From NCBI GenBank assembly GCA_027262695.1, contig GCA_027262695.1_4722.1: a stretch of DNA of 64,000 nucleotides; one strand, written 5' to 3'. The translations under genes and the position numbers were made by a program. Positions 1 to 57,449 of the stretch are shown here, one piece after another (within the stretch, counting starts at the first letter, position 1; the number at the start of each line of letters is the position of its first letter). The DNA is from a phage. The notes under the pieces were generated by a model. That model did not search any database and was not told where the DNA came from. It worked only from the letters and a program-made list of their open reading frames with translations.

Positions 1-1451
1 AAATCAAACAAAGCTGGAAAGACGAATTACTTGCATTAGTTAACAGCAAAAACAGTTTACAACTGACATTAGACGACGTAAAGTTTGAATTAACCGAACC
101 GGTAAGCGAAGTGCCCGGAACGGTCGTTGTTACAATCAAACCGAACGATAATAGTCGCTACTTTAACGAGCAGTCTCTGACCTACGTCCGTCGAGACATT
201 GCTAAAAACTTCACCGGGATTCCGTTACGGGTTATCGTTAAGCAAGATACCGCTGTAAGGGATATCATCAATACGATTGCTGAACGTTACGGATTGGTAT
301 TTGACACAACCGTCGACTTCCTCGAATCAGAGCTGAATAAACAAATTACTTTCGCAGACACCGGTATTAAAGACGTTACTGTTCCGGTTGCAAACACGTC
401 TTATGTTTGGGCTGGTAATCTTCAGTTCAATATTGCGAACGATACGTTAAGCTTGATTACTATCATCAAGAAAACCAATCTTACGAATCTGGTTTATCTG
501 GATGGTGTTGAAGCTGACACATCGGGGTCGTTACTGTTAGCCACCACAGCACTTGTTAACGATAGCGTAAATAAGCCGATGGTTGAAAACGAAGATATCG
601 TCGATGAATTCTACAACGTTCTTAATGCTCTAGCCAAATATGGTGACATAACTGGCGATGAATTAAATGCCGCCTTACATGCGTACGATGCAGCAGAAAA
701 CAGGAATAAAACCACGGTAATAACTCTTGGTGATATCCAGTGTGTTGCAACAGAAAAAGACGATTGGGAAATTGGACGTTTACGCGGTCAGATGGTTCTC
801 GCGCTCAAATCCGATAAACAACCTGAGCGCGAGAACACGTTAAGGTTGTTTACGAATGGCGGTGACGTCTCACTAACGTTAAACACAATGAAAGATATCA
901 GTATCGATTGGGGTGATGGGAATAAAGTAACGTTGGATGCTGAAGAAAGATACGCGCACCACACATACGCCGACAATAACCAGTACCAAATCGAAATTGT
1001 GTCTCGTACGGACCCAGATGTGCTGCGACCAAATTATATTTCTGGGAGTGAGATAACCGAAGTAATTCACTGGGCTACTACTTCAACAATAGCTCTGAAT
1101 TTTGTTGGATGCGATAATTTAGCGACTGTTCCAGATGAGATCCCAACTTCGTGGACAACGTTGGACAGCATGTTTGAAAGTTGTACGAATTTGAATGATC
1201 CGTCTATCTCTAACTGGAATACAAGTAACATCACATCAATGAATGGTATGTTCGGCGGATGCACTAAATTTAACCAACCTTTAGCTGCCTGGGATGTCAG
1301 CTCAGTAACTGACATTGGTGGTATGTTTGTCGGATGTGACAGTTTTAACCAAGATTTAAGTGGGTGGCGATTACCGTCAGGAGTAAACCACACCAATTAC
1401 GATGATGGTGCTTTCTCGTGGCAGACGGAACATAAACCGACATTCCAGTAA
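1..1451 (+). CDS. BspA-type leucine-rich repeat (DUF285-like) protein, 5'-partial; possible adhesin or fibre component
   Basis: Frame is open from nt 3 to the stop at 1449-1451 with no upstream stop, so the gene starts before the window; the ORF track's GTG at 111 is probably internal. C-terminus carries tandem repeats 'SMFESCTNLNDPSISNWNTSNITSMNGMFGGCTKFNQPLAAWDVSSVTDIGGMFVGCDSFNQDLSGW' typical of the BspA/DUF285 family. Confidence 0.6.
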   Translation, partial: IKQSWKDELLALVNSKNSLQLTLDDVKFELTEPVSEVPGTVVVTIKPNDNSRYFNEQSLTYVRRDIAKNFTGIPLRVIVKQDTAVRDIINTIAERYGLVFDTTVDFLESELNKQITFADTGIKDVTVPVANTSYVWAGNLQFNIANDTLSLITIIKKTNLTNLVYLDGVEADTSGSLLLATTALVNDSVNKPMVENEDIVDEFYNVLNALAKYGDITGDELNAALHAYDAAENRNKTTVITLGDIQCVATEKDDWEIGRLRGQMVLALKSDKQPERENTLRLFTNGGDVSLTLNTMKDISIDWGDGNKVTLDAEERYAHHTYADNNQYQIEIVSRTDPDVLRPNYISGSEITEVIHWATTSTIALNFVGCDNLATVPDEIPTSWTTLDSMFESCTNLNDPSISNWNTSNITSMNGMFGGCTKFNQPLAAWDVSSVTDIGGMFVGCDSFNQDLSGWRLPSGVNHTNYDDGAFSWQTEHKPTFQ

Positions 1452-1470
1452 AAAAAAATAGTTAGCATAA

Positions 1471-1504
1471 CTTCCTCCCTACCCATAACGGGCGGGGAGG
1501 AAGG
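1471..1504. terminator. Bidirectional intrinsic terminator hairpin between convergent genes
   Basis: Stem CTTCCTCCC / GGGAGGAAG flanked by an A9 run upstream (T-run on minus strand) and TTTAT downstream; lies between the plus-strand stop at 1451 and the minus-strand gene end at 1521. Confidence 0.6.
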
Positions 1505-1520
1505 TTTATGTGGTTATGAC

Positions 1521-1859
1521 TTAGAACCAGAGTTCTTTCATGAAGTAGGCTTCCATATCGTAAATAAGCCACTCATCTGGGATTTCTAAAGGATCGTCTT
1601 CGGTTAAGGTGAGCATGTGCAGGGCGAACGCACGCTTAATATCTTCCAACAGCTTATCATCACCGTAACCTTCGGGTAGTTTACGGTCAACCAGCTGGGT
1701 TTGTTTATAGACATCGCGGAACGCTTCAGGATTATGTTTATCCATCGGGAATTGTTCAGCAGCCTGAACCATCGAAAGCGTCCAGCTTACAACATTGTAA
1801 CGCTCACCGTTAATTTCACTGAACTTATCATCGATTAAACAGATTTGTTGTATATTCAT
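1521..1859 (-). CDS. hypothetical protein (112 aa)
   Basis: ORF on the dominant coding strand; ATGA start/stop overlap with the upstream gene suggests translational coupling. No recognisable motif. Confidence 0.5.
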   Translation of the reverse strand: MNIQQICLIDDKFSEINGERYNVVSWTLSMVQAAEQFPMDKHNPEAFRDVYKQTQLVDRKLPEGYGDDKLLEDIKRAFALHMLTLTEDDPLEIPDEWLIYDMEAYFMKELWF

Positions 1860-2749
1860 ACATTTTCTCCATTCTTATCTTGGCCGCAATCACACTCTTC
1901 GGTGTCTTTCTTACTTAAACGTAAGACACCGAGTGCGGCATGCTTGAGTTCTTGCAAAGCGCTTTTCAGCTGACCTTCTTCATCGAAATCAAAATACTTC
2001 TCGTTGTAGCTTAATGCTGGAATCATATTTACGAGAGGTTCGATGGCAGGCATCAGCATCTCAATCACAACCTTAGGATCAACGAAACGTTCGAACCCTT
2101 CAGGAAGTTTACTGGTGATAACTTTGTCGTTCTTGATGAAGAATTTATTCTTGAACAGATCGTCAAGGATAGCATTCTCTTCATCGGTACGTTCAGCGTA
2201 AGGCCGATCGATCATCTGTACGAAAACACCGTTAAGGGCTTCAGGCATTGCGGGGTTCTCACGAAGGTTAAACCCTGCTGGGATTTCGATATCGATCTTC
2301 GCCCAGTCGATAACCTGATGGTCTCGCGTATAGATGACGTCAACCTCCCACGCCAAGCCATCGGTACCTTCTACGGTATAACGTGTTTTAGCTTGACCTT
2401 CTGGTGCCATACGCTCGATAGCATCGAACATCTCGACCGGAATTTCCACTTCGCTTTCCATGGCATCCCCTGGACCGCGATAAACCTTCGTGGTCATGAA
2501 GTACTTCGGTTCTTCGTTGTCGATCTGGATTGCTCGAGCACGTACCTGGCCTTTAACACCACCCACCGACGTGTTATCGTACAACCACTGGTGTTGCACC
2601 ATGTGTTCAATTTTCGTGGCGTTCTGACGTAGGATATCTACACCGTCTTCAGCCAGTTTACCAAAGAAGACCAGCTCACGTTCCTGCTGTGTCTCTCCGC
2701 TCAACATCATTAAATTGGCGATTTGTCTCACGCCTTTTACTTTCGACAT
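1856..2749 (-). CDS. hypothetical protein (297 aa)
   Basis: Long ORF on the minus strand, tightly packed with neighbours; no recognisable motif. Confidence 0.55.
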   Translation of the reverse strand: MSKVKGVRQIANLMMLSGETQQERELVFFGKLAEDGVDILRQNATKIEHMVQHQWLYDNTSVGGVKGQVRARAIQIDNEEPKYFMTTKVYRGPGDAMESEVEIPVEMFDAIERMAPEGQAKTRYTVEGTDGLAWEVDVIYTRDHQVIDWAKIDIEIPAGFNLRENPAMPEALNGVFVQMIDRPYAERTDEENAILDDLFKNKFFIKNDKVITSKLPEGFERFVDPKVVIEMLMPAIEPLVNMIPALSYNEKYFDFDEEGQLKSALQELKHAALGVLRLSKKDTEECDCGQDKNGENV

Positions 2750-2797
2750 ACATGCTCCGGTTACAAGGGCTTCATCGGAAGCCCTTCTGCTTTAATA

Positions 2798-5059
2798 TTA
2801 CAATTCGAAATCTTCATCGATAACGCGTTGGGTTAGCACCTTGTCGCTGAAGAACTCCACCTTACGTTGATGGTATTTCCGATGTGCTTCAATCGACGTA
2901 CACACCAGATACCAGAACGTGGGTGTCATACCCTCGAACTTCCCTTTCAGCTGACGTAGTCGACCTAACACCTGAATGTTACCAGTTCTCGACCCCATCG
3001 CTAACGTCATGAACGTCATCACCAAGTCAGGAAGATCGATTCCTGTACCAGCCGATTTCACCGTTGTCACACTGATATCATTATCCAGTAACACCATGAA
3101 ATCTTCTTCAGCGGTATAAGGACCTATCTCCAACTCAGGGATACGTTCACTTAAGTAATGCGATAACGACTTGCACATATCAACGGTTGCACAATACACC
3201 AACATCTTCATGCCTTCCTGATATTGGTTCATGAAACCTTTGATAATAACCGTATAGATAAAGTTGAAATAGGCGAGTTTGAGTTGCTTATTCTTCATGA
3301 TAGACTGTTCGAATACCGTGTGAGAATAAGAACCTCCAAAGCCTTTGTATCGGACTTTATCCGTACTGCGTAGTCGATACGTCACCGCATTTACCGCGAT
3401 GTATTTCTTGTATTCACATTTCGCATAACGTGCTTCTTTCGGATACATCAAATACAGCATCCGCTCGATGAACGGATCGTCAGACACCGCCGTTGCCGAC
3501 AGATAAATGATTTCCGGAATATTCGCGTAACACTTCACTTTGAACAAGAAATGCAGAGCTTCGTGACATTCATCGTGGATTAACAATCCAATGCCTGTTT
3601 TCTCCCAGAACTCGACTGGATGGAAAACATAAGGTGCGACACAGTTGTTCTTTTCATAATCGGTTATATAACGCTGAAACATGTTCAGTGAGAATAACGC
3701 AATTTTGAAATCCAACTCACCTTGTTCTACCAGCGTCTGAAATTCCAACATGCTGTAACGAGGAATGTCGGGATGCGGTGGGTCAGACTGGGCTGTACCA
3801 CGTATCTCGATAACATCACCTGGTTCCATACCGAAGAAACTTAGCAGTGAGCTACGCCATCCAGGCATGTACCTCGGTGACAGAATGATGCCCGTCCGTA
3901 CACCACGTCGGAAGGTGATCTCCTGCGACATTGCGGTGTTGTGCGTGACGATATGGTCTTTAATAACATAAAGGCTTTCGTCGTTGTCCACCGTGATGCA
4001 ACGTGCCTTCGCTTTCACCGTCGGCACGATGCCGCCAATCGCTAAACCAGGAAGCGTGTTAACGGGAAGATCATCTGGAATCTCAATGCCGTCAGGAATA
4101 AGCTTAAGCAAATCGGAATGGTAAATTAATGTCTCCATCGTGTAACTATTGATGGGGCATTTATACGCGATTCCCCCTAACCGATAAGCCAACTCCCAGA
4201 CCTCGGTCATTATCTGCGAATCGGTGGTTCTGACCGCAAGGTGAGCCCACCCTTCTTCAACACGCAGTACGCAACGATCTTTGATGAGTTCTCTGAAACG
4301 ATCAAGACCCACGAGTTCTTTCGGTTCGTAAAGTCGGATTCTTACCGGACGAGATCGTGACGATCTGTCATTAAGACGTTCCATGATTTCACTCGTGCTG
4401 AGCACCTTGTCAGGATCCGTGCATTGCCAGAGATGATCACCACACGCTTCAACCATTCGTCCATCTTCAAAGAAGACAGCGTAAAGCTGAATATCGTCAT
4501 GATCAAAGATAGCAGTTACGTTCGTCGGTAAACCATCCGCGCCGATGACCTCATCACCCACCTGGAGCTCACCAATCGGCTTCCAACCGCTTGGAACCTT
4601 AACGGGTGTATGGAGAGCCAATGCTTTCCCAGACCCCGTGCCTGCGGTGTTTAGGCTCATTCTGAAAGGGGTATCCTTACCCCCATCCATGTACTCCAAC
4701 CATTCTTGCTGATCTTCACGCCACGGAAACTTCCAGTTCTTCACAAACTCCACTTCCTTACCTGGAACCGGATCGTGGTAAACGATTTCCAACCACTCCT
4801 TTCGAATTCCTCGAGAAAAGATAAAATCCAAAAACGACTTCAGCTGTTCACGAAGTAAGTAGACCTCGCTATAATCGCTTCTTGCTGCGGCGTAGGTGTT
4901 GATGGTATCGGTGACCATTCTCCGTGTACGAGGGTCGCGTCGTTTCCGTAGATGCAAACAACGGTCTCGAAGGTAATGGCCAATCAAATGGGCAAATCGA
5001 AGTCCGTATCCGCTCAGCTTCATGCCATGCGAGAAGACGTCGATACGAGCTAACTTCAT
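2798..5059 (-). CDS. SF2 DExH-box helicase precursor containing an intein
   Basis: Walker A 'AGTGSGK' followed after a 229 aa insertion by 'T'; motif II 'LLIHDECHEA', motif III 'LSAT', motif VI-like 'QVLGRLRQ'. The Arg-rich N-terminal 47 aa look non-coding-like, so the true start may be the internal Met near 4918. Confidence 0.75.
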   Translation of the reverse strand: MKLARIDVFSHGMKLSGYGLRFAHLIGHYLRDRCLHLRKRRDPRTRRMVTDTINTYAAARSDYSEVYLLREQLKSFLDFIFSRGIRKEWLEIVYHDPVPGKEVEFVKNWKFPWREDQQEWLEYMDGGKDTPFRMSLNTAGTGSGKALALHTPVKVPSGWKPIGELQVGDEVIGADGLPTNVTAIFDHDDIQLYAVFFEDGRMVEACGDHLWQCTDPDKVLSTSEIMERLNDRSSRSRPVRIRLYEPKELVGLDRFRELIKDRCVLRVEEGWAHLAVRTTDSQIMTEVWELAYRLGGIAYKCPINSYTMETLIYHSDLLKLIPDGIEIPDDLPVNTLPGLAIGGIVPTVKAKARCITVDNDESLYVIKDHIVTHNTAMSQEITFRRGVRTGIILSPRYMPGWRSSLLSFFGMEPGDVIEIRGTAQSDPPHPDIPRYSMLEFQTLVEQGELDFKIALFSLNMFQRYITDYEKNNCVAPYVFHPVEFWEKTGIGLLIHDECHEALHFLFKVKCYANIPEIIYLSATAVSDDPFIERMLYLMYPKEARYAKCEYKKYIAVNAVTYRLRSTDKVRYKGFGGSYSHTVFEQSIMKNKQLKLAYFNFIYTVIIKGFMNQYQEGMKMLVYCATVDMCKSLSHYLSERIPELEIGPYTAEEDFMVLLDNDISVTTVKSAGTGIDLPDLVMTFMTLAMGSRTGNIQVLGRLRQLKGKFEGMTPTFWYLVCTSIEAHRKYHQRKVEFFSDKVLTQRVIDEDFEL
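3938..4624 (-). mobile_element. Intein (229 aa, class-3-like: Ala1, block B Trp, block F Cys, block G Thr-His-Asn, +1 Thr) in the helicase P-loop
   Basis: Insertion lies exactly between Lys and Thr of GSGK|T. N-terminal block A-like 'ALALHTPV...GEL', block B-like 'EACGDHLW', block F-like 'ARCITVDNDESLYV', C-terminal 'IVTHN' then Thr. Removing it restores a canonical 'GTGSGKT' P-loop. No endonuclease-sized domain is evident. Confidence 0.6.
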
Positions 5060-7095
5060 AACGTGATTACATCCTCCGGTTTAGGTTCTTTACGCGGTAG
5101 AAGCATGTAGTCGATCGGATGATCTGGCTTCATGGTTGGGATATAACTGTTCGGGTTTTGGAACGCATCCAGTTGCTCTTGGTGAGCGAACTTCATACTC
5201 AAGGAGCGCATGTTCATGTTCTTCTTGAAGGTACTGAAATAACGAGTCGTTCCCTGTTTCGGCATGCGGTAATCTTTCGTGTGTGGTGAACGAATCATAC
5301 TCGCGTAGAGAATAACGTCCAGATGCGATAGATTCATTCGTAAACGTTGCGCACACAGACGATGCCAATAATACAGTACGTTGGCTACTTCTTCTGGTGT
5401 CGCTTCATCTTCCGAAAGGAATCCTGCACTGAACGAACCTTTCCCGAATTTGAATTCACGTTCGATTTCTTTTGCGTATTCCATCATGTTTTTATGGATG
5501 AGTGGCATCTGGAATAGCGTCCGTGAATTGTCCCAATGTTTCAAGTCGAAGATCACAATCCCGTCTGCTGTTACTTCCCAGCTATGGCGTTTGAGATAAC
5601 GGATAAACGCTTTGCTTGGTACAACAGGACGTCCACAGAAATCGAAATTGACTTTGAGTTTACGGTAGCTCTCATCTTTCCTGTCGTAAATCTCCATATC
5701 GCAAAGCGTCATGTTGAACAGACGTTGCGGGATAAGCGAACTGATCTCTTCCGCTTCAGCTACATCGTACAACATGTTCGCCAGACCGAGTTTCATCTTA
5801 ATCAGCACGTGTTTGCCTTTCAGCTCACGGGCTAATTTGATGTCGTTCATGTTCTGGCTGTAACGAAGGATATGTTGATATTCCGGCGGGATTGGTGACG
5901 TAGACACGGTGGACGAACCATCGTGATGTTTGGTCGAAAGAATGTTCTGGGTAACCTGTTGTGAACCTGTACGTGCTGAGCAGTCTCCGATGTTGTCGGT
6001 CAATGCAAAGTTATGGCTTAATTCACCATAGCACGTTGTACAGACACCAGCAGGATCAGAATGATGACAGTAACAAACGGAACGCATGTTCACAATGGTA
6101 CCGATCAATTCTTTCATGTGAGGCTGTATCGACAACAGCGAACCATCTTCACGTAAGATGAATCGACCGTGGAAACCTTTAAGATCGGTTTCATCACGTA
6201 TCGGCATCGGAATGGTTTCTCTGCTTCCACAGTCACCAGGGTGCAGACGCTGTACAACCGCCGTTGCGATTTGCAGCTCACGTCCGAAATATTCTGACTT
6301 CTTAATCTGCTCCTTGTTGAACAACAATGATTTTGCCGCAGAGCGACTTTCTTTCAAACTGTCTGGAAGCGAGATCAAGCCTGCTGCATACGACCGCATC
6401 ACTGGGTCACGGAAGATCTCCGAGTTGATATCGGTTAAGAAGCCACGCATCCCAATACACTGCAATACCTGTCCGATCGATACGTGTTCGGTTCTTACCG
6501 CACGTGCGATAGGGTTGGCATGCAATGTTTTATCGGTACTTAAAACTTTTGTTAGTTTCTTGTATGCGCTCTCAATACCTTCGCGGGTGGGTTCCGCTTC
6601 AGCGATGATTTTCTTCACTTCGGGATGTACGGTAATCTGATAAAAATCATCCGCACAGATGGTCGTTACGTATTCCTCCAACGCATACGTAAAGAAGTTA
6701 TAAACGTGGTTAAACATATCGAACAACGCTTTCCAGAGAACCTCACGATTCTCTTGCGGATACGCATACATGCATTGACGATAGGCTGCGCTTTGTAATG
6801 CAACGGAAGAACCTGCCGTAAACTTGCGTTTATCCACCAGGTTCTCTTTCGTTAACGGTGTCTCAGGATACATGCGATGTAAAGACCAATGCATGTAGCT
6901 AAAGAAAATGCGTCGCGCACGCAATTCATGAACACCATCGTCCATCTCGATATACACACGGTCATTAGGCTGTGCCCACTCGAACACCTCATCAACCGGC
7001 CAATGCATAAGCTCTCGCGCCCGTACACGGCGTTTCGTGGTGATCGTCTGTACTGTATTCATTATTTTTACTTTCCGATTAAGTGGTTTTATCAT
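5056..7095 (-). CDS. Multisubunit RNA polymerase beta-prime subunit, C-terminal fragment
   Basis: 'GMRG' (cf. E. coli beta-prime QLAGMRGLM); zinc-site-like 'RSVCYCHHSDPAGVCTTCYG' (cf. RSVVSCDTDFGVCAHCYG); trigger-loop-like 'GDCSARTGSQQVTQNILSTKHHDG'. Alternative start at Met12 (7060-7062). Confidence 0.7.
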   Translation of the reverse strand: MIKPLNRKVKIMNTVQTITTKRRVRARELMHWPVDEVFEWAQPNDRVYIEMDDGVHELRARRIFFSYMHWSLHRMYPETPLTKENLVDKRKFTAGSSVALQSAAYRQCMYAYPQENREVLWKALFDMFNHVYNFFTYALEEYVTTICADDFYQITVHPEVKKIIAEAEPTREGIESAYKKLTKVLSTDKTLHANPIARAVRTEHVSIGQVLQCIGMRGFLTDINSEIFRDPVMRSYAAGLISLPDSLKESRSAAKSLLFNKEQIKKSEYFGRELQIATAVVQRLHPGDCGSRETIPMPIRDETDLKGFHGRFILREDGSLLSIQPHMKELIGTIVNMRSVCYCHHSDPAGVCTTCYGELSHNFALTDNIGDCSARTGSQQVTQNILSTKHHDGSSTVSTSPIPPEYQHILRYSQNMNDIKLARELKGKHVLIKMKLGLANMLYDVAEAEEISSLIPQRLFNMTLCDMEIYDRKDESYRKLKVNFDFCGRPVVPSKAFIRYLKRHSWEVTADGIVIFDLKHWDNSRTLFQMPLIHKNMMEYAKEIEREFKFGKGSFSAGFLSEDEATPEEVANVLYYWHRLCAQRLRMNLSHLDVILYASMIRSPHTKDYRMPKQGTTRYFSTFKKNMNMRSLSMKFAHQEQLDAFQNPNSYIPTMKPDHPIDYMLLPRKEPKPEDVITL

Positions 7096-7170
7096 ACAGT
7101 GTATTCATTCCGTTGGAATTTACTCCGGGAGTCCCTTCCCTTAGGTTATATAGGTGTTAATATATCTCGG

Positions 7171-7656
7171 TTATCCTGCTTTCTTCTGAAGGCTATAAGG
7201 ATCCATCGCATCGGAGCGGTCGGCAACGATGGTAAGAATGAAGCCTTTTATCTGTCTCACTTCGGTAACCCGGAGTCCCCTATCGTTACGATAAACATTT
7301 TCTTCGCCGACCAGTTTTGGTCGAATAACATAAACCCCATCAACGAACGGAAACGTTGAATACGGATAAATACCAATACGAATAATATTCGGATGATCAC
7401 CTCGAGGGTCACGTCCAAACACATCAACTCTACCGTAAATCGTGCCGTCCGCACCTTCCACTTCAATAAGGTCGTTGCGAATATCCTGAAACAGTTGTTC
7501 TAAGGTCTCTGCGGGATATGTATAAGCGACGCCTAATGCAACATCCTCAATGGTCTTAACGCTAAATCCGTTAAGCCAAATAATCCGATCATCTGTCCAT
7601 GTTTCTTCATACGCTGTTAATCCGTCGCCGTATATGTTGGCGTGTGCTATCTCCAT
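7171..7656 (-). CDS. hypothetical protein (161 aa)
   Basis: ORF on the dominant strand; no recognisable motif. Confidence 0.5.
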   Translation of the reverse strand: MEIAHANIYGDGLTAYEETWTDDRIIWLNGFSVKTIEDVALGVAYTYPAETLEQLFQDIRNDLIEVEGADGTIYGRVDVFGRDPRGDHPNIIRIGIYPYSTFPFVDGVYVIRPKLVGEENVYRNDRGLRVTEVRQIKGFILTIVADRSDAMDPYSLQKKAG

Positions 7657-7768
7657 AATCTCATTTCCTCTTCTCTGTTAGGATAAATGACATGCTGGAT
7701 AACGTTGCCTTTGCATATATTGCTTTATTTCCGTCAGAAATAACGGAAAATAAAAACAACGGCATAAA

Positions 7769-7799
7769 CCCCTCCCACCACCACATGGGAGAGGGAGGG
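7769..7799 (-). terminator. Intrinsic terminator hairpin (CCCCTCCC / GGGAGGG)
   Basis: GC-rich inverted repeat just downstream of the minus-strand gene ending at 7806, with an A-rich tract at lower coordinates on the plus strand (U-run for the minus transcript). Confidence 0.5.
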
Positions 7800-7805
7800 T
7801 GTATG

Positions 7806-8168
7806 TTATTCTACATTATCTTCTACGGCTTCGGATTCATCCGCTTCTGCGAAGCTTTCCTGAACCGCAGTGGTATCCCAGTTCGCTGCGTAATCAGCCA
7901 TGGCTTCGCGCAGCGCTTCTTCACCCGCATCACCAGCCAGGTCAAGTACAACCAACCCTTGTGCGACGTTCTGCGCTACGGTATCGATAACCGTTGCATC
8001 CTCTTCAAAGCTACGTACCGGTTCAATGGTACCAACATCAACAGCGTAGTTCGTGGTTGCGGTAAGGACAGCAACCTGTAATGCGTTGCTGTCTTCGTCA
8101 TGAAGTGCTGCTTCAATACCGATTGGACGGGCCAGTTCTTGCAGTGTCAATTTACGAATTAAGTTCAT
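7806..8168 (-). CDS. small highly acidic protein (120 aa)
   Basis: Asp/Glu-rich throughout, e.g. 'EADESEAVEDNVE' at the C-terminus; no catalytic motif. Confidence 0.5.
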   Translation of the reverse strand: MNLIRKLTLQELARPIGIEAALHDEDSNALQVAVLTATTNYAVDVGTIEPVRSFEEDATVIDTVAQNVAQGLVVLDLAGDAGEEALREAMADYAANWDTTAVQESFAEADESEAVEDNVE

Positions 8169-8191
8169 TATGTCTTTTCCTCAGGTGAATG

Positions 8192-8620
8192 TTAGCAATC
8201 GTTTAAAACTTTTTCGATACGATGGTTGACAAGCTCATTGAACGACTCTTCTGCTTGTTCGATAATTTCATCAACGTCAATATCTAATCGTTGGGGTTGG
8301 ATGACGTGCTCTTTCATGGTTTCCAGCCAGTATTCGGCTTTAATCATGACGTTAACAACATGTTCAACCTGACTGCGTAGGTCGATAATCTGGCAATCAG
8401 GATTATTAATATCGATGACGTGTCCGTGGTGGTTGATAAACCCAAGCTTATTCGATGCTTTTACGGCATCGCGAGTAAGTTCTTGCAGGATTAACGCATT
8501 TACGTAATTCACTGCGACGGAACGATTTTCTTTATCACTCATACCAGGGATCCTCTTTAAGTGTTCACATTCTAGTGTTAAGCAGTTAAAATAAACCGTT
8601 CCTTTAATCAGCATAAACAT
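8192..8620 (-). CDS. hypothetical protein (142 aa)
   Basis: ORF on the dominant strand; terminator-like hairpin downstream. Confidence 0.5.
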   Translation of the reverse strand: MFMLIKGTVYFNCLTLECEHLKRIPGMSDKENRSVAVNYVNALILQELTRDAVKASNKLGFINHHGHVIDINNPDCQIIDLRSQVEHVVNVMIKAEYWLETMKEHVIQPQRLDIDVDEIIEQAEESFNELVNHRIEKVLNDC

Positions 8621-8649
8621 CCTCCTCCCACCACACGGGCAGGAGGAGG
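8621..8649 (-). terminator. Intrinsic terminator hairpin (CCTCCTCC / GGAGGAGG)
   Basis: GC-rich inverted repeat immediately downstream of the minus-strand gene ending at 8661. Confidence 0.5.
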
Positions 8650-8660
8650 CGTAATATGCA

Positions 8661-9098
8661 TCAGAAAGGAGTACGGTTCTTATATTCGAATAGTGTCTGG
8701 AGGACGCATCGCGTTAACGCGTTTTGTAATTCGATACGTCCTTGTTCCCCTAACAGATCCAACACCATCATCCCTTTTGCTGTTTTCTCTGCCACTTCTT
8801 CACAAATCCGTAAATTGTACACATCATCGTCGTCAAGCTCCTTACGACGGTCAGAGCTGAAACGCATCAGCTCACCTTGACTATCACGAACATCAGCGAA
8901 TGCTTCATAGGCTGCATCAATGTTCGCAGAACGCGTCAAACCCTCCGCTTCGCGCCATTCTCGGTATGTACCATCAAGCGTTTGTTCCTCGCCTGAGGTT
9001 GTTGATTCACTGTTGGTGGTTGGGCGAATTAAATGGGGTGTTATCATCGCTATTACGCTATCGTAATGCTCCATCGTATACCTCGTTAGCTTTCGCAA
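8661..9098 (-). CDS. hypothetical protein (145 aa)
   Basis: ORF on the dominant strand; overlaps the upstream gene end by 13 nt. Confidence 0.5.
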   Translation of the reverse strand: MRKLTRYTMEHYDSVIAMITPHLIRPTTNSESTTSGEEQTLDGTYREWREAEGLTRSANIDAAYEAFADVRDSQGELMRFSSDRRKELDDDDVYNLRICEEVAEKTAKGMMVLDLLGEQGRIELQNALTRCVLQTLFEYKNRTPF

Positions 9099-11254: not shown

Positions 11255-11285
11255 AGGACTTCCTATTATCGAATTGAGGTACGTC

Positions 11286-11639
11286 ATGTCTAATACGCCC
11301 CTGAACGACTTCCTTAAAACAAACCCAGAAGACCTCATCCACAACCTTGATTTCAGGAACGTTGTTGAGATGCATCTGGAATATTTCAAAAATGCCGGTT
11401 TGGTTTCTACGATAGACATACCACCCGAACGCGCCTACGAATTCGATGGTAACTTTTATGGATTATGTCGGGTTATGCTTGGCGAAGGCAGTGAACCTAT
11501 GCACTGGGTTACCCTAAGAATCAACGGTTATCGTGATCCTACGGAATACACCGCCGATGTCCTAACGATGAAGATTGTCGATTCAAGCGCCATCAACACG
11601 TTAAAACAGCAATATCGCACAATCCACTACAGCGCTTAA
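11286..11639 (+). CDS. hypothetical protein (117 aa)
   Basis: Plus-strand ORF with a GAGGT RBS and its own downstream hairpin terminator at 11645-11673; divergent from the RNAP beta gene. Confidence 0.45.
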   Translation: MSNTPLNDFLKTNPEDLIHNLDFRNVVEMHLEYFKNAGLVSTIDIPPERAYEFDGNFYGLCRVMLGEGSEPMHWVTLRINGYRDPTEYTADVLTMKIVDSSAINTLKQQYRTIHYSA

Positions 11640-11644
11640 GATAA

Positions 11645-11673
11645 CCCTCCCACGGCGTAAAGCGGCGGGAGGG
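11645..11673. terminator. Bidirectional terminator hairpin (CCCTCCC / GGGAGGG)
   Basis: Inverted repeat followed by a T-rich tract; sits between the plus-strand gene end at 11639 and the minus-strand gene end at 11706. Confidence 0.55.
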
Positions 11674-11705
11674 CATTTATGCCGTCGTTCGATGCCTTTA
11701 GTGCA

Positions 11706-12986: not shown

Positions 12987-13004
12987 ATTGTATTTCCTTT
13001 TCTT

Positions 13005-13025
13005 TTACGACAATGGTCCCCCATG
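13005..13025 (-). terminator. Hairpin GGTCCCC-catgaca-GGGGACC
   Basis: Perfect 7 bp stem between two minus-strand genes. Confidence 0.45.
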
Positions 13026-13041
13026 ACAGGGGACCTATGGA

Positions 13042-14628: not shown

Positions 14629-14629
14629 T

Positions 14630-16216: not shown

Positions 16217-16269
16217 AACAACCTCTTTTCGCGGTTCCCTGTTAAACGTTTTCTATAACGCCATCAAGG

Positions 16270-16280
16270 AGGTAATATAA
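16270..16280 (-). promoter_or_regulatory. Candidate phage promoter element TTATATTACCT (minus-strand sense)
   Basis: Identical 11-mer also at 27417-27427, in both cases 50-70 nt upstream of a minus-strand start codon. Confidence 0.35.
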
Positions 16281-16418
16281 GCGTGAATAATTTTGGATTC
16301 CTGCTGAGTCATCGCTCAGCATGCAAGGCATCCCGCCGAAGCGAGACACCTTGCACTAACGGAAAATACTCGCGTTACCTTCTGAATCGAAGACCCAGAA
16401 TGCGATACTAAAGCATCA

Positions 16419-17207: not shown

Positions 17208-17281
17208 TTTCAGCCTCGTTACGTAGTGTGAATCAATTTCTGACTTCAGATGATAGTCAATATTAGTTAAAAATTACAGCC

Positions 17282-18070: not shown

Positions 18071-18081
18071 ATCACTCCCTC

Positions 18082-21573: not shown

Positions 21574-22413
21574 TTAACGTGTTCTCCTGTCACGATGGGT
21601 ATATGACTGTAATCCGATGTCCATATGCGGTAACGTCAATGTTTGCCAGATCTGTTGTGCGTAGCGATCGAGTGTATAGTCGTTGGTAACGCAGTCAACC
21701 GGTTCAATGAGATGCGTCGTGTATTGACTTTTCTCTGAAAACGGATCAACGTTAGCAGTATCTCCTAGTCCGCTTTTCACCGTGAAAACAAGACGAGTAA
21801 CCACCATCGCTTTACGTTGTTGCTCGTTATAACGAAGGCCACGATAAATCGCATAGCTCGCGCCTTTCAGGCTTCGGGTATAACGAAGGTCAGACGTCGT
21901 CCCGCCAATTTGATGCAACATCCAGTCTAATGTATCCCGCCAGTATTTATCATCCGTGTCAGGTACCTCGATACCGTAACGGGTAGGAAGCAGATCCAAA
22001 AGCAGTTTGTAGAGTCCACGACGCAAACCGTGTTCTTCTGTTTCTGATAATGTGTTTCCTCCAACATAACGAGAAATACGTGTTCGTAAATACGCACGAA
22101 TAAACATGCACGTCATTACTGTTTTCGAGTGGCTGGTGATGTCTTCAAAAGTATCAACACTGAAACTCGTTTCGATCAATCGTCCGTTAAAGTACAATGC
22201 AGCTACATACATCGCGCTACTGCTGTCTCGGTCGATGTTCAAACGACCGCAGATATTGGCTGCGTCGTTCATGGTAAATTCGAGTTTGTCGTGTTCAATA
22301 TGGTAGATAATATCTTCTTGGGTTGCCAGGCTCGCAATACGACGATAGCCTGGAGTAGTACGTTTAACGCTCATAATGGTCCTCGATTTCAATTTTAGGA
22401 TTACAGACGGCAT
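21574..22413 (-). CDS. hypothetical protein (279 aa)
   Basis: ORF on the dominant strand. Confidence 0.5.
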   Translation of the reverse strand: MPSVILKLKSRTIMSVKRTTPGYRRIASLATQEDIIYHIEHDKLEFTMNDAANICGRLNIDRDSSSAMYVAALYFNGRLIETSFSVDTFEDITSHSKTVMTCMFIRAYLRTRISRYVGGNTLSETEEHGLRRGLYKLLLDLLPTRYGIEVPDTDDKYWRDTLDWMLHQIGGTTSDLRYTRSLKGASYAIYRGLRYNEQQRKAMVVTRLVFTVKSGLGDTANVDPFSEKSQYTTHLIEPVDCVTNDYTLDRYAQQIWQTLTLPHMDIGLQSYTHRDRRTR

Positions 22414-22425
22414 AAACCCTCCCCG

Positions 22426-22452
22426 CGCTATGCAGGGAGGGTAGCCATTGGT
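22426..22452 (-). terminator. Hairpin ACCCTCCCC / GGGAGGGT
   Basis: GC-rich inverted repeat between minus-strand genes. Confidence 0.4.
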
Positions 22453-25399: not shown

Positions 25400-25424
25400 G
25401 GGAGGGAGGTTGCCCTCCCTCCCG
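25400..25424 (-). terminator. Hairpin GGGAGGGAGG / CCTCCCTCCC
   Basis: 10 bp GC-rich stem directly downstream of the 632 aa gene, followed on the minus strand by a T-rich tract. Confidence 0.55.
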
Positions 25425-27586: not shown

Positions 27587-28681
27587 ATGTTTCGTGTTTT
27601 AAATAACCTCCCGCGAACATCATCGGGTGTGCAACCCATCCCTCAGAAAGACTACCTAATACGCGAAGTGCAAAGAAACCTACAGACAATCCAGAACCAC
27701 TACCAAGGGTTTACCTTCGCGGTTCAGAGCGATCACATCCTTGCATTGCTGCTCGCACAGCTCCCTATGAGATACGACATCTCAGTACAAACTTACTACG
27801 ACATGATCGCTGACCTTACACCAGAATTGGGGAATCGCGTTAAACTAACAACAGCGCGATACGCGGGTAAGTTATTTAACGGTGCGTTCTATCCGGGATT
27901 GCATGAAGCGATCATTGCAACCAGTGAAAGCCGTCTTATATCGCGTGACGTTCTCGATAACTGGCGTAACTGGTCTCCGGTCAGAATCGTGACACACCCC
28001 TACGCGAATCTTCGCTATATCCCTCTACATCGAAAACCGGTTGAAGAAGGACGGGGTTTTGCGGTCATCATGATCGATGTACCTTTATTAGCGTTGCAGT
28101 ATCGCATGTGGTCATTAGTCATGGGTCACAACGTCGATGGTAAATGGGTGGTTAAAGAACCTGTTACAAGTTTCATTGCCAGTTTTCCTTTGGTCAATGC
28201 ATTATACACACACAACGACGTGGCTATCCGCAATCGTTGCTTATGGGTACCTCCGGCTAAGAATCCGCTCAAGTCACCGATTTACGTCAACGATCTGGAT
28301 AACGTTTTCAGTCAAGTGGTGCTGACCGTCCAACATCAGCTATTACGAAGAAAACGTAGTTACACCGATATGTTGAAACAGATACCGAGTTTATACGAGG
28401 ATCAATTTCAAGCAACACGCATGGGTTACACCATCGATCTTCGACAAACACGGTGGGCAAGGGATCTCGGATGTTTGTCTTTATGGCAACAGCTTGTTAC
28501 CTTGCAAAACGTTTCAGAAAGCGTCGGCTTCAGTAGTCAAACCGACAACGACTTATATCGTGCAGCCGATCGAAGTCTAAAAGAAGGGAATTGGGAATCG
28601 TCTCCTTTACCCGGTGATCTACGACGCGAGGTTATCGCACAGGTTGCTGATCTTTTAAAAATACTTCCCGCTGGTGCATAA
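27587..28681 (+). CDS. hypothetical protein (364 aa)
   Basis: Plus-strand ORF with an ACGGAG RBS, divergent from the 632 aa gene; bidirectional hairpin downstream. Confidence 0.5.
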   Translation: MFRVLNNLPRTSSGVQPIPQKDYLIREVQRNLQTIQNHYQGFTFAVQSDHILALLLAQLPMRYDISVQTYYDMIADLTPELGNRVKLTTARYAGKLFNGAFYPGLHEAIIATSESRLISRDVLDNWRNWSPVRIVTHPYANLRYIPLHRKPVEEGRGFAVIMIDVPLLALQYRMWSLVMGHNVDGKWVVKEPVTSFIASFPLVNALYTHNDVAIRNRCLWVPPAKNPLKSPIYVNDLDNVFSQVVLTVQHQLLRRKRSYTDMLKQIPSLYEDQFQATRMGYTIDLRQTRWARDLGCLSLWQQLVTLQNVSESVGFSSQTDNDLYRAADRSLKEGNWESSPLPGDLRREVIAQVADLLKILPAGA

Positions 28682-28683
28682 TC

Positions 28684-28716
28684 CCCTCCTCCTTCCCTGA
28701 TGGGTTGGAGGAGGGT
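28684..28716. terminator. Bidirectional terminator hairpin (CCCTCCTCC / GGAGGAGGG)
   Basis: Between the convergent gene ends at 28681 (+) and 28721 (-). Confidence 0.55.
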
Positions 28717-28720
28717 TATG

Positions 28721-30874: not shown

Positions 30875-31185
30875 AAACCCTCCAAAAGTCGTATAGCCTA
30901 TCTACATCATCTCGTATATCTGTTAAAAAAGAAAGACGGCATAAAAAAGAACCGATCCAGCCGAAGCCAGATCGGTTGAAAGGATAATTAATAACAGGGA
31001 AATGAAAGTGTGACTGAAAGATATCGATGATGTTCGTGAAATAAGATCTTCTCGTCTACAGTGATGCCAGATCAGAGGGAGGTTGTAAACGAGAGACGGT
31101 TCACTAAAGGAGTAACAAACGCGAACCTATCTTATTTCACCGATGGCGCTAACCACTCAAAATATATAGTACCATATGTAAAAGT

Positions 31186-34984: not shown

Positions 34985-35041
34985 AAACTCTCCTACACGG
35001 CATAAAAGCCTGCCCCGAAGGACAGGCTCATCATGATACTT

Positions 35042-42051: not shown

Positions 42052-42135
42052 GAAGGTAATGTAGGTTTATTTTAATCTCCATTTCGCGATGATATGACAG
42101 TCTTTATTACGTTTACCATCTGAGGGAGCATGCTC

Positions 42136-43374: not shown

Positions 43375-43562
43375 AGTTTTACTGCCGTTGGTTATTATTT
43401 GAAGCATAGGGCTTCACCCAGGAGTACCATCCCTTTAAGCCATTTATCCTCTCCTGGTTAACTGTCGTTCTCTCACAGTGCTCGACAGACCAAAAATGCT
43501 CAGGCCCCATAGTCCTCCTCTGGGAATGGAACCCAGAGGAGGCTATGTTTATTATGCTGTCG

Positions 43563-43883
43563 TTAAAACTCAATTCGACCTTTTGTGGTAAATAATACAC
43601 CTCTTTGCCAACAGAAAAGATCCTCCGATTGCGCACATACACGAATACCCGCATCGAACAAATGTTTTGTTCTGGCGCTTAAACAATCTGAATCTTCTAC
43701 GTACAACAGAAGACGTTGACATTTATTCTGAATGCGTTCAACAAGAATGTTCTTATCGCTTAAAATAGAATGCGCGTTATCCGTTAAGTTATCGTCTGTT
43801 TCCAGCTGTTTAACAAGTTTGATTAAAATACGTAATTGCTCGAGTGTGTCATGATCAAGTGAATCGCCCATGGCGTACCTCAA
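43563..43883 (-). CDS. hypothetical protein (106 aa)
   Basis: GAGGT RBS; flanked by hairpins at 43914-43941 and 43514-43542. Confidence 0.4.
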   Translation of the reverse strand: MRYAMGDSLDHDTLEQLRILIKLVKQLETDDNLTDNAHSILSDKNILVERIQNKCQRLLLYVEDSDCLSARTKHLFDAGIRVCAQSEDLFCWQRGVLFTTKGRIEF

Positions 43884-43953: not shown

Positions 43954-46185
43954 TTAGAAAAAACCTCCCGGACGGTATTGTCCCATCGTCATCCACGCGT
44001 TACGAGAAATATTCCGTTCGTTTGAGGAGCGGCTTATTTGACGATACGTGTTCGCGCGTTCTTCCCTTGCTTTCGTGATCATCGCGTCAATAGAAACAGA
44101 CGCTGAATCCTCCCCACGTATCTTCCCTTTATACGTAAGAAGCTCTGCCTCCAAACGATCCAAAATGAGGCCGTTGGTTTCGGTTTTGAGCAGCTCATAG
44201 ATTTCAGCAACACGTTGACGTAACTTCGCCTGCTGTTGGTTCAGATACGCTTCGTAGGGGTCTATTTCACCGGTCACCGATGCCGGTAAACGACTCATGA
44301 CTTTAAGGGGATCGATACCATAATGGATCTGTTTCTTAGCACGCTTAATGAACCACATCGCCAACATCCACGCAAAGGTCATGTCATCATGCATTCCATC
44401 TTGGTGGTCAACACGTCCGTCTTTAATCACCAGTCCGAGAATCTCAGAACACAGCATCTTGTCGCGTAATTGTCCACGCGTTTCTACAATACCTTCCATC
44501 AAGATGTCGGAATATAATTCCATACGTTTGCGCGCATCCGTGGTGAAACCCAGATGCTTCTTACGTTGTGCGTACCAGCTTTCATCACGCATGCTTAACG
44601 GTAATTTCAAGTCTTCAAACATCGCCGGGTTGTCAGCATGTCTGTCCACAATGGTGTTATAGACACGTTTGAATACATCGATACCCGCTTGTCTTAGGAA
44701 CTCCTCGATCGCGTCTAACAGCATAATCGCACTGCTTTTACGTTCAGGAATCAACGTCACATTTTTATATCGCATCAGGAAGTTCGCTATCCAGCGCGCA
44801 AATGAAAGCAAGCTTAACTTATTAAAACGACCTGTCGCCACAACCTCTGCTGTTTCCACGTCAACCATGACCAGACCGATAGCATCTCGACCAATCGCAT
44901 CACTGGTATCCAAACCCGCAACCACCTTATTGTTCTGCATGTAGGTTTCGATCTGACCTCGAGGGATATACCAGTTAACGCAGTAGCCTTCAGGTGAAAT
45001 CTCAATGTGGTCGATTTCACGTTGTCCCGCCATGATCATTTCAACCATCTCAGCGGTTAACGGGCTTTCTGCTGAACCGTTGGTCCAGATGTTCATGTAG
45101 TCGCGGTCTTTCTGGAGTTTGTCACCTTCCGTTTCGTTCATGGTTTTCGCTAACCATTCATCACTGAATCCCAGCTGGGCATGGTTCCATTGCGCACCAA
45201 TCCTGACGGTCGCCTTGCTAAGTTCGCACGGTACATTGTTCAATACCGTTTGATGTAAATGTTTTTCGTTACGGCAATCAAAGAAACTTTCAGAGAACGG
45301 CGCTGAACGCATGAAAACTTCATACGCCCATTTTCCTTCACGTTTATCCAATTCCCCAGCCGTTGTTGTGTAGATGATACTGGTTAAGTCACCGTTACTT
45401 AACGCTTCATCACGTGCCGCACCCATCGCACCGATACCGGCAGGAACAATGATTTCAATGTATTTCGTAAACGCGGTTTCGTCGCTATGGAATATCGGGG
45501 TGGTTAGACCACGGCCGATGTTCGTGGCTTGTTTCTTATCCGATCGCGGAATCTTCACCGAAAGCTTGTTCTTAAAACGCGTGTAGGTGACGTTTTCTTT
45601 GTTCGATGAGTCACGGCTATCCAGCGTCCAGAGATACGCCGGTAACAGATCACGGATACTACGCACGTCTTCTACTGTTTTCGTACGCGCATCACCGTCT
45701 TTTGTTAGCTGGATGACTTCGGTGTTACGACTGCGTACATACGTCAGATAGCAAAACAAACCTAACATGGTCATGGATTTACCAGTCTGACGTATCTGTA
45801 TCTGATACCAGTTCGTTCGTGTGAATATCCCCCACAGCATCGGAATATTACCGCGGTTAGCACGGAATGAGATTTTGTTGTCACCCGCTTTTGCTGGGAC
45901 ACGCATCACTTCACGGAAGAAGTACCATGGATTGAGGTAACATTCTGCACTGATCATCTGAATCTGTTCAGACGTCAAATTCGGCGCATGAGGATCCACA
46001 CCAATCAATCTTGGATTCAACAACGCCATGAAGAACGCGGAGTTACGAACGCCGAATTCACGACGGTATAAAATCGCTAAATCACGCCAACTTGTGTTTG
46101 TTGTTTCCCAGTGCGGAACCGCTTGAGGAAAATAATCCCAATCCTCCTCAAACAGAATGATTTTCTTCGGATCAACAATCGACAT
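43954..46185 (-). CDS. terL: terminase large subunit
   Basis: Walker A-like 'IRQTGKS', RNase H-like nuclease region 'VVAGLDTSDAIGRDAIGLVMVD', and C-terminal 'HQDGMHDDMTFAWMLAMW' typical of terminase nuclease domains. Confidence 0.7.
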   Translation of the reverse strand: MSIVDPKKIILFEEDWDYFPQAVPHWETTNTSWRDLAILYRREFGVRNSAFFMALLNPRLIGVDPHAPNLTSEQIQMISAECYLNPWYFFREVMRVPAKAGDNKISFRANRGNIPMLWGIFTRTNWYQIQIRQTGKSMTMLGLFCYLTYVRSRNTEVIQLTKDGDARTKTVEDVRSIRDLLPAYLWTLDSRDSSNKENVTYTRFKNKLSVKIPRSDKKQATNIGRGLTTPIFHSDETAFTKYIEIIVPAGIGAMGAARDEALSNGDLTSIIYTTTAGELDKREGKWAYEVFMRSAPFSESFFDCRNEKHLHQTVLNNVPCELSKATVRIGAQWNHAQLGFSDEWLAKTMNETEGDKLQKDRDYMNIWTNGSAESPLTAEMVEMIMAGQREIDHIEISPEGYCVNWYIPRGQIETYMQNNKVVAGLDTSDAIGRDAIGLVMVDVETAEVVATGRFNKLSLLSFARWIANFLMRYKNVTLIPERKSSAIMLLDAIEEFLRQAGIDVFKRVYNTIVDRHADNPAMFEDLKLPLSMRDESWYAQRKKHLGFTTDARKRMELYSDILMEGIVETRGQLRDKMLCSEILGLVIKDGRVDHQDGMHDDMTFAWMLAMWFIKRAKKQIHYGIDPLKVMSRLPASVTGEIDPYEAYLNQQQAKLRQRVAEIYELLKTETNGLILDRLEAELLTYKGKIRGEDSASVSIDAMITKAREERANTYRQISRSSNERNISRNAWMTMGQYRPGGFF

Positions 46186-46196
46186 ATAAACTCCTC

Positions 46197-46223
46197 CGAT
46201 GGAGGGTGCTCGGCACCCTCCAT
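46197..46223 (-). terminator. Hairpin GATGGAGGGTGC / GCACCCTCCATC
   Basis: 12 bp perfect inverted repeat between the gene ending at 46236 and the terminase start. Confidence 0.5.
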
Positions 46224-46235
46224 CGTTGTATTACC

Positions 46236-54645: not shown

Positions 54646-54683
54646 ATCCTCCTTCCCTAGCCATCAGGCCGGGGAAGGAGGAT
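54646..54683. terminator. Bidirectional terminator hairpin (ATCCTCCTTCCC / GGGAAGGAGGAT)
   Basis: 12 bp stem flanked by an A11 run and a T-rich tract, between convergent gene ends. Confidence 0.6.
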
Positions 54684-54693
54684 TATGGTTTAT

Positions 54694-55646: not shown

Positions 55647-55752
55647 AGCGCTAACCCCAAAGGATAAAAATAAAACCGTAACATAGCCACCACCGCAACC
55701 CCATGACAGGGCTACGGTGGGGTTTATACAGAGAGACGAGTTAAATTACAAA

Positions 55753-57165: not shown

Positions 57166-57449
57166 CTTTTTAATTCCTACTCAACAAAAGGTTCATGTTC
57201 GACATCACGTGTCATGTATCCGTAGAATAATGAGTCCTGGTAAGCTTTTACATCAAAAGGCGGCATAAAAAGTACCTCCTCACCCACAAGGGGCAAGGAG
57301 GTTCGTCCATCACGACGGAAGGACGTTATGTGACGCGGTGTCCATAACGGCCCTGGTAGCAGGCATTAAAGATAACAAAAAGGATGTAAGTTGAGCTAAA
57401 CCACCTAAATACGGTAACGATGACTTCCGTACACAATATACTGCAACAC

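Follow-up and report, generated by a model that had tools for sequence, protein, structure and literature searches.

Gene-end hairpins with a TTATG box in a Goslar-like jumbo phage, probable transcription terminators of the phiKZ type

How the RNA polymerases that nucleus-forming jumbo phages encode, working inside a protein shell, come to stop has barely been studied. The closest described systems are in two Pseudomonas phages. Transcript 3' ends of phiKZ were mapped by ONT-cappable-seq, and 61 terminator regions predicted to be intrinsic are reported to share the motif 5'-BCCYCCCCHWWDGGGRRGGBYTTATKYYGT-3', in which TTAT comes after a stem-loop (Putzeys et al. 2024, Microlife, PMC10914365). 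For 201phi2-1, a 2024 study (PMC11512511) reports a motif A, strongly like that of phiKZ, in 59 of 132 terminators, elongated stems where motifs are combined, and 15 bidirectional terminators; eight motif-bearing terminators lowered downstream reporter expression in uninfected P. chlororaphis, those with longer stems performing best. Here we analyze a recurrent family of GC-rich hairpins at gene ends in a 64,000-nt stretch of phage DNA (GenBank assembly GCA_027262695.1, contig GCA_027262695.1_4722.1), the whole of which we call the window. We consider these hairpins probably to be gene-end transcription terminators of a Goslar-like phage, of the type mapped in phiKZ and 201phi2-1.

The whole 64-kb window is collinear with bases 145138–209212 of Escherichia phage vB_EcoM_Goslar (hereafter Goslar) at 86–92% identity; window bases 1–12000 taken separately match Goslar at 87.5%. 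It has a GC content of 46% and is ~93% coding and ~7% intergenic. Open reading frames (ORFs) 5056–7095(-) and 9086–11419(-) gave weak matches to bacterial RNA polymerase beta' and beta, respectively, so the window has split polymerase genes; the homologous Goslar region encodes split RNA polymerase genes, the nuclear shell protein, PhuZ tubulin, terminase and tail sheath. Collinearity and the gene content of the Goslar region together identify a nucleus-forming jumbo phage (Chimalliviridae) as the source, a relative of Goslar yet distinct from it. Genome-wide counts were taken in Goslar, chosen for its annotation. In the part of its RefSeq record that corresponds to the window, only three terminators are marked, all generic; the 11 hairpin sites that the initial annotation of the window had listed are not among them.

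Judged by tested sequence features, and not by resemblance alone, the hairpins belong to the conserved chimallivirus (phiKZ-type) terminator motif. As in phiKZ, a pyrimidine-first CCYCC stem with a GGRGG 3' arm is followed directly by a YTTATG-YYGT box, the hairpins are intergenic and come after genes, convergent genes have bidirectional copies, and the genome is that of a chimallivirus with two multisubunit RNA polymerases, virion and non-virion. The 18-nt 3' half of the phiKZ motif, GGGRRGGBYTTATKYYGT, was found without mismatch at 7759–7776(-) and 22407–22424(-) and with two mismatches at 34997–35014(-), where 0.2 matches with up to two mismatches would be expected. The same repeat scan that was used for the window (see below) yielded ~14 comparable sites in phiKZ 1–50000, for example GCCTCCC-TTCG-GGGAGGC-TTTATGTTG. 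Scanning IMG/VR for CCCTCC..GGAGGG..TTATGC returned at least 120 stretches. About half of the matches listed were in contigs >200 kb, and the three bases after TTATGC, which the pattern left free, were C (52%), G (59%) and T (49%) in the matches listed, reproducing the YYGT of phiKZ.

There are differences as well. The motif has already been published for two Pseudomonas phages, and the local flavor here is a longer stem (8–13 bp in its outer part in Goslar and the window), usually two-tier with an inner CCC/GGG stem. We take the strict 30-nt consensus with its 4-nt loop to be a detail of the phiKZ logo rather than a defining feature. An upstream CATA, present at several tandem sites in phiKZ 1–50000, is found at only 3 of 30 tandem sites in Goslar. 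The two also differ in host, E. coli here and Pseudomonas for phiKZ, and the phiKZ ends were mapped, whereas the present sites are known from sequence. In 201phi2-1, motif A is reported to resemble the phiKZ motif, and its A/B combination elongates the stem, as in the stems here; the 32-nt Goslar family with AA-CCC-GUAA-GGG-AA (see below) is not described in the available text of that report (PMC11512511). In the literature searched we found no description of the motif for Goslar or any enterobacterial chimallivirus.

The hairpins of the window are as follows.

1466..1510, both strands: bidirectional terminator between convergent genes 111–1451(+) and 1521–1859(-); hairpin 1471–1503, arms CTTCCTCCC..GGGAGGAAG and a CCC/GGG inner stem; TATG boxes at 1507–1510(+) and 1466–1469(-), the minus strand also having a T9 run farther downstream; Goslar counterpart 146607–146639.
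7759..7805, minus (the gene strand): hairpin 7770–7799, CCCTCCC..GGGAGGG, then GTTTATGCCGT; the phiKZ 3' half is matched exactly.
8612..8658, minus: hairpin 8621–8649, then ATGTTTATGC.
11645..11685, plus: hairpin 11645–11673, CCCTCCC..GGGAGGG, with box CATTTATGCCGT; 3' of the small gene 11274–11639(+) and opposite the end of 11706–12986(-).
22407..22442, minus: hairpin 22416–22442, arms ACCCTCCC..GGGAGGGT, then TTATGCCGT; the phiKZ 3' half is matched exactly.
25400..25423, minus: hairpin with the purine arm first, GGGAGGGAGG ttgc CCTCCCTCCC, then TTATAC, a box without the G; an atypical member, identical in its Goslar copy.
28677..28720, both strands: two-tier bidirectional hairpin 28684–28715, CCCTCCTCC-TT-CCC-tgat-GGG-TT-GGAGGAGGG, TATG boxes on either side; between convergent genes 27587–28681(+) and 28721–30874(-); a member of the Goslar 32-nt hairpin family.
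30936..30977, minus: GC hairpin 30950–30977 with a UUCG loop, then CTTTTTTATGCCGT; same box on a non-CCTCC stem; counterpart at Goslar 176545–176568, annotated there as a putative terminator.
34997..35035, minus: hairpin 35008–35029, GAGCCTGTCC-ttcg-GGGCAGGCT, then TTTATGCCGT, the same box; counterpart of Goslar terminator 180588–180607.
43508..43547, both strands: bidirectional hairpin 43514–43542, CCTCCTCTGGG..CCCAGAGGAGG, CTATG on either side; between convergent genes 42130–43374(+) and 43563–43883(-); the plus strand has a second TATGCTGT farther on.
46183..46228, minus: mixed-arm hairpin 46197–46225, CGATGGAGGGTGC, upstream of the terminase gene.
54646..54687, both strands: hairpin 54646–54683, 12-bp outer stem ATCCTCCTTCCC..GGGAAGGAGGAT, folding energy (dG) ~-30; the plus side carries a TATG box, the minus side a T12 run; between convergent genes 53734–54624(+) and 54694–55233(-).
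55682..55722, minus: hairpin 55687–55722, CCCCACCGTAGCCC..GGGGTTGCGGTGGTGG, then CTATGTTACGG; not among the sites first listed.
57260..57302, minus: hairpin 57274–57302, ACCTCCT..AGGAGGT, then ACTTTTTATGCCGCC.
2765..2786, minus: generic intergenic hairpin after a gene end, no TATG box.
13015–13035, 43913–43942 and 61525–61550: other generic hairpins without the motif.

All 11 sites of the initial annotation form stable stem-loops, their cores folding at about -16 to -30 kcal/mol, although the one placed at 22426–22452 was ~10 nt off and really lies at 22416–22442. The polypyrimidine and polypurine arms that it described, in the form of a CCYCC(C) 5' arm and a (G)GGRGG 3' arm, are present at nine of the 11, and also at 55687; the arms are in the opposite order at 25400–25423 and mixed at 46197–46225. 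Its A/T runs on both flanks are true runs only beside 1471 (A9) and 54646 (A12), the recurrent flanks being CATAA/TTATG boxes. These boxes are directed by strand, and it is mainly at convergent gene pairs that they are two-sided. All five gapped convergent junctions of the window (1452–1520, 11640–11705, 28682–28720, 43375–43562 and 54625–54693) carry a hairpin of this type. The TATG that follows 46197–46225 belongs to the terminase gene, whose start codon it supplies and whose ribosome-binding site, GAGGAG, lies just before it, and this hairpin is probably a plain terminator rather than a box-type member.

The composite pattern CCTCC N3-30 GGAGG N0-9 TATG had 17 matches, against 0.01 expected from shuffles; they are located at 10 hairpin sites and, as a small overlapping match, at 46183–46205. 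Every match was intergenic and none fell inside a coding region, despite the high coding fraction. Perfect inverted repeats of at least 7 bp numbered 28–31, varying with the maximum loop, where a first-order random model predicts ~12, and 14 of the 31 sit in the 7% of the window that is intergenic. In the Goslar genome, repeats with the pyrimidine arm first numbered 30 in the 6.5% intergenic DNA and four in coding DNA, a 108-fold difference in density; put another way, the pyrimidine-first order was found in 30/54 intergenic perfect repeats and only 4/49 coding ones. The initial annotation had named equal frequency inside genes as evidence against its proposal of a conserved terminator or RNA-processing signal, and the opposite was found. 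That proposal holds up, in that a phiKZ/201phi2-1 type of stem, a downstream box and a position after genes are common to the sites; so does the claim that they are more uniform than generic intrinsic terminators.

Less specific searches had little to say about the family. RNAfold run in sliding windows with a cutoff of -15 kcal/mol was too unspecific, most of its 335 hits being in coding DNA, so counts of perfect inverted repeats were used instead. No Rfam family was found at the hairpins at gathering threshold, the sole hit being a group I intron (see below). A consensus terminator scan found 17 where 19.8 were expected; it is uninformative and missed the family. Over bases 1–20000 it returned only 8621 among the sites listed there. 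The run of at least five U within 8 nt of the stem that marks canonical intrinsic terminators is generally lacking, T runs being present only near 1471 and 54646, on the minus strand. Canonical intrinsic terminators share with these sites a GC-rich hairpin just past the gene, a U-containing segment after the stem, and bidirectional use at convergent genes. They differ in having a run of 5–8 U where there is UUAU alone here, followed by a conserved G and CCGU, and the stems here are held to one polarity and nearly one sequence family.

The box is the most constant part of the signal, because hairpins with unrelated stems carry the same one: 30950–30977(-) and 35008–35029(-), neither in the original list, have unrelated stems with UUCG loops and both have TTTATGCCGT. 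Elsewhere, on the strand of the upstream gene, mostly minus, the stem is followed by GTTTATGCCGTTG at 7770, TTATGCCGTCTG at 22416, CATTTATGCCGTCG at 11645(+), ACTTTTTATGCCGCC at 57274, ATGTTTATGCTG at 8621 and TTATGCTAAC at 1471. The CATAA to the left of many stems on the plus strand is a minus-strand TTATG box. Of the 18 hairpins tabulated in the window, 14 have TATG no more than 14 nt from the stem on one strand or both. In Goslar the T of TATG falls 1–6 nt past the stem. Of 30 tandem minus-strand junctions of Goslar with a hairpin, 17 had TATG within 14 nt downstream on the sense side and three had it on the antisense side, against a background of 2.2%. Of 17 convergent junctions, 14 had the box on the plus side and 12 on the minus side, with 11 having it on both. 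Goslar intergenic DNA contains 18 copies of the extended form TATGCYGT, and 15 of these directly follow a hairpin; the 22 copies in coding DNA are near the ~14 estimated by chance.

Because the box follows a GGAGG arm and contains ATG, we considered translational control, with GGAGG as ribosome-binding site, the ATG of the box as start codon, and the pyrimidine arm, which equals the anti-Shine-Dalgarno core CCUCC, masking it. ATG does lie 3–9 nt past GGAGG at nearly every site, it is the RefSeq start of Goslar gp047, gp111, gp167 and gp183, and it is in frame with window ORFs 21574–22413 and 8192–8620. Yet convergent junctions have this layout on either strand although no ORF comes after it, the 3–5 nt of spacing at many sites is too short, most downstream genes begin 25–130 nt further on, the phiKZ consensus as reported allows T for the G of the box (K in the motif; PMC10914365), and the sites are at gene ends, even where the gene is the last in its run on that strand. 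We judge this explanation very improbable. A masking hairpin or RNA thermometer acting on a Shine-Dalgarno sequence, considered along with a Firmicute chromosome in view of the 46% GC and the GGAGG motifs, was likewise dropped, given the Goslar-like phage source and the two-sided box at convergent junctions.

Some gene calls are touched by the same overlap. Goslar gp047 (49772), gp111 (117666), gp167 (152272) and gp183 (166924) are annotated as beginning at the ATG of a box, and two window ORFs have such an ATG, at 22411–22413 and 8612–8614, as their first one in frame; the GGAGG arm then looks like the ribosome-binding site. The starts were probably mis-called, and one 31-aa gene is probably spurious.

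That the hairpins are terminators, acting as RNA, is also consistent with how they fold. At 23 of the 30 tandem Goslar sites the sense-strand RNA folds more strongly than the antisense (Wilcoxon p = 0.0045), which points to a function in RNA rather than as a DNA cruciform. In the window the sense-strand excess is clearest at 8621, 22416, 55687 and 57274. The minus-strand fold of 8621–8649 has 12 pairs, two of them G-U, with a dG of -21.6 versus -16.9 for the plus strand; for 55687–55722 the values are -26.0 (minus) and -16.1 (plus). G-U pairs account for part of the difference.

The stems are conserved too. All 16 window hairpins compared have a Goslar counterpart at the homologous place, with substitutions mostly in loops. 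Hairpin 54646 has a compensatory one-base insertion in both arms in Goslar, and two mismatches of 57274 in the window are paired in Goslar. Among repeats within Goslar, the two-tier 32-nt hairpin CCCTCCTCC-AA-CCC-GTAA-GGG-AA-GGAGGAGGG is present in three identical copies (27746, 48107 and 71990) and about ten variants at as many other places; most of the copies are at convergent junctions. Its AA/AA internal loop and CCC/GGG inner stem are invariant, and standard pairs make up 98.3% of the pair cells in an alignment of 15 copies. Two-sided changes are seen at five of the 12 pairs (14 cells) and one-sided changes at none, a covariation score that no shuffle reached. Almost always C-G has become U-A by transitions, or the reverse, which keeps both the pairing and the pyrimidine-5'/purine-3' polarity. 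A MAFFT alignment of ten sites with flanks was structurally inconsistent because loop lengths vary; pattern searches and the 32-nt subfamily were used instead.

One member of the subfamily differs in its core between the two phages. Relative to window 28684–28715, the Goslar counterpart at 174267–174298 has its asymmetric inner core in the opposite orientation between conserved flanks, and it has an extra outer stem layer. The inner-core difference looks like a flip, or a copy replacement within the palindrome.

Copies this similar raise the question of a selfish or mobile palindrome, akin to repetitive extragenic palindromic (REP) or miniature inverted-repeat transposable elements, that spread through intergenic DNA and has terminator activity only incidentally. 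The three identical 32-nt copies and about ten close variants would suit it, as would the flanks that some share (27746 and 71990 have 13 nt of downstream flank in common). Like enterobacterial REP elements, the hairpins are short, GC-rich, imperfect palindromes in intergenic DNA after genes, and REP elements can stabilize upstream mRNA. The differences are that no transposase is associated, that the two phages, at ~13% divergence, show no presence/absence difference at any of the 16 sites compared, and that the box has a direction, following that of neighboring genes. In addition, the motif is common to very distant relatives (24% protein identity), and the compensatory changes among copies keep pairing and arm polarity, which indicates selection on structure. 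A mobile origin is thus hardly credible.

Support for the hairpins as terminators comes, then, from identity with the phiKZ motif, position after genes, direction of the box, conservation and covariation of stems, and sense-strand folding. By analogy with phiKZ and 201phi2-1 we infer that RNA 3' ends form at them in this phage. The proposed signal would have two parts: a GC-rich RNA hairpin with a near-pure pyrimidine 5' arm (CCYCC...) and a near-pure purine 3' arm (...GGRGG), and a TTATG(CCGT) box 1–6 nt past the stem that would stand in for a long U tract. Hairpin-driven release would occur at or near UUAU(G), acting on the phage's own polymerases within its nucleus, a compartment presumably poor in host factors. 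A pyrimidine/purine hairpin keeps its polarity on reverse complementation, therefore one element can serve both strands, and with the two-sided box of convergent pairs a single DNA element could stop transcription from both directions. Since motif terminators of 201phi2-1 work in the uninfected host, host polymerase is stopped too and no phage factor would be strictly needed.

Several observations weigh against this interpretation. The outer arms are spaced 13–16 nt apart with an inner stem of 3–4 bp, so the 4-nt loop HWWD of phiKZ is not matched; we therefore speak of a Goslar-type version, not an identical copy. Most sites lack a canonical U tract. Of the tandem Goslar hairpins, 12 of 30 have no box, so gene ends are not one class. 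Inverted repeats covary equally at the DNA and RNA levels, therefore the case for action in RNA rests on the strand asymmetry of folding and box. No RNA 3'-end data for Goslar or this phage were found in the literature searched, and the published 3' ends of phiKZ and 201phi2-1, as reported, do not separate termination from processing. As to the box-less hairpins, the box at tandem Goslar sites goes with the stem: it is present at 12 of 14 CCTCC-type and 5 of 16 other sites (Fisher p = 0.004). This indicates two classes of gene end, box-type and generic, and some ends of the generic class have ordinary T runs.

Sequence by itself cannot separate termination from processing, nor can 3'-end mapping and reporter traps tell cleavage from termination. 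In an explanation by processing or stability, an endonuclease of host or phage would cut long transcripts in single-stranded UUAUG, and the hairpin would shield the new 3' end against exonucleases or mark the mRNA for export from the phage nucleus. The stems are indeed very stable (dG -20 to -30) and conserved in sequence, beyond the usual need of termination, and the conserved box and the invariant AA/AA internal loops of the 32-nt family would suit recognition by a protein. We nonetheless consider it unlikely. There is no direct evidence for cleavage, a hairpin with a U-containing tract at a short fixed distance is the classic geometry of intrinsic termination, and the RNA-binding protein ChmC of these phages binds near start codons, with no motif or hairpin binding in enhanced crosslinking and immunoprecipitation (eCLIP).

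The box also coincides with a start-site motif. The consensus of phiKZ late promoters is TATG, with the last G as +1 and each position required in vitro (Yakunina et al. 2015, PMC4666361; Chen et al. 2026, PMC12809450). The tetranucleotide is the same here and likewise on the non-template strand. It is possible, if doubtful, that the hairpin ends one transcript and the TATG that follows (G = +1) is where the non-virion RNA polymerase (nvRNAP) starts the next, as a fused terminator-promoter, or that a version with a pause in the polymerase's pocket applies. Both may hold together with termination at the hairpin. In the pause version, which we put forward very tentatively, the TATG pocket of the polymerase's beta lobe would capture the box, pause with the 3' end at UUAU and release, with restart at the G in tandem arrangements.

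Several features are compatible with these ideas. Goslar gp039, the homolog of phiKZ gp123, is 24% identical to it overall, and both adjoin the major head gene; of 14 named pocket residues, seven are identical and two are conservative swaps of aromatics (binomial p = 0.03). TATG held at -3 to +1 would put the RNA 3' end ~4–9 nt past the stem base. This is close to the usual release distance in intrinsic termination. At tandem Goslar sites the G of the box is mostly 25–130 nt ahead of the next annotated start codon. Recognition of the non-template strand that aids weak terminators has a precedent in NusG of B. subtilis (PMC8060035).

Other features tell against a start site or a pocket-dependent pause. 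The two-sided box of 11 of 17 convergent junctions has no gene to serve on either strand, and a promoter there would make only antisense RNA. The best-studied late promoter, p119L, has an AT-rich upstream region and no GC hairpin before its TATG, whereas TATG here is tied to a hairpin even where no gene follows. Intergenic TATGCYGT is almost always linked to a hairpin (15 of 18) and is therefore not a free-standing promoter element; the ~2-fold enrichment of TATG alone in intergenic DNA outside hairpins is insufficient for calling stand-alone promoters. Function of the reported 201phi2-1 motif terminators with host polymerase alone means that the phage polymerase pocket is not required, and the pocket is described as incomplete in the transcribing complex. 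The start- and end-mapping papers on phiKZ and 201phi2-1 draw no link, in their available text, between terminator box and late promoter. In the literature searched, no in vitro termination study of nvRNAP was found.

TATG boxes also occur in tandem, ~10 nt apart, at window 43544–43560(+) and Goslar 27778–27793 and 93477–93492, for example aaTATGctgtTATGct.

Other differences between the window and Goslar were noted. A group I intron at 62787–63153(-) (Rfam RF00028, 51 bits) splits a large RNA polymerase beta-like gene into ORFs 61551–62651 and 63149–63976; the insert is absent from Goslar, in which the bases equivalent to window 62688 and 63152 are the neighboring 208361 and 208364. At 23357–23726(-) there is another group I intron, scoring 49.2 against a gathering score of 50 bits, and a weaker third match at 23798–24135(-) (26.9 bits, E = 1.3e-4). 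Of the homologous Goslar region, ~1.4 kb (167846–169282), with the HNH endonuclease gene gp186 beside the annotated intron, is missing from the window. The helicase ORF 2798–5059(-) encodes 753 aa versus 524 aa for Goslar gp164, and ~680 nt of it (3940–4622) have no Goslar counterpart. This extra segment gave no Pfam hit; an intein, an extra domain or a fused gene are all possible. In ORF 111–1451(+), a leucine-rich/PARCEL-repeat surface-protein gene, both ends match Goslar gp161, while 547–1206 has no nucleotide match to it and is a variable segment of what is likely a host-interaction protein.

The hairpin and TTATG signal, box included, is kept in a distant lineage of E. coli phages (gp123 and gp039 being only 24% identical). 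Its presence there and in many uncultivated contigs of jumbo size therefore suggests a family-wide punctuation mark rather than a peculiarity of phiKZ. In practice it offers a simple rule for annotating the transcription units of Goslar-like phages, flags several box start codons that are probably mis-called, and may supply compact bidirectional terminators for work in E. coli. The part that could matter more is the coincidence with the TATG start-site motif of the polymerase. If the doubtful link between stopping and starting were true, one four-base signal would set both ends of transcription units in Chimalliviridae, in likeness to the gene-end/gene-start junctions of non-segmented negative-strand RNA viruses.

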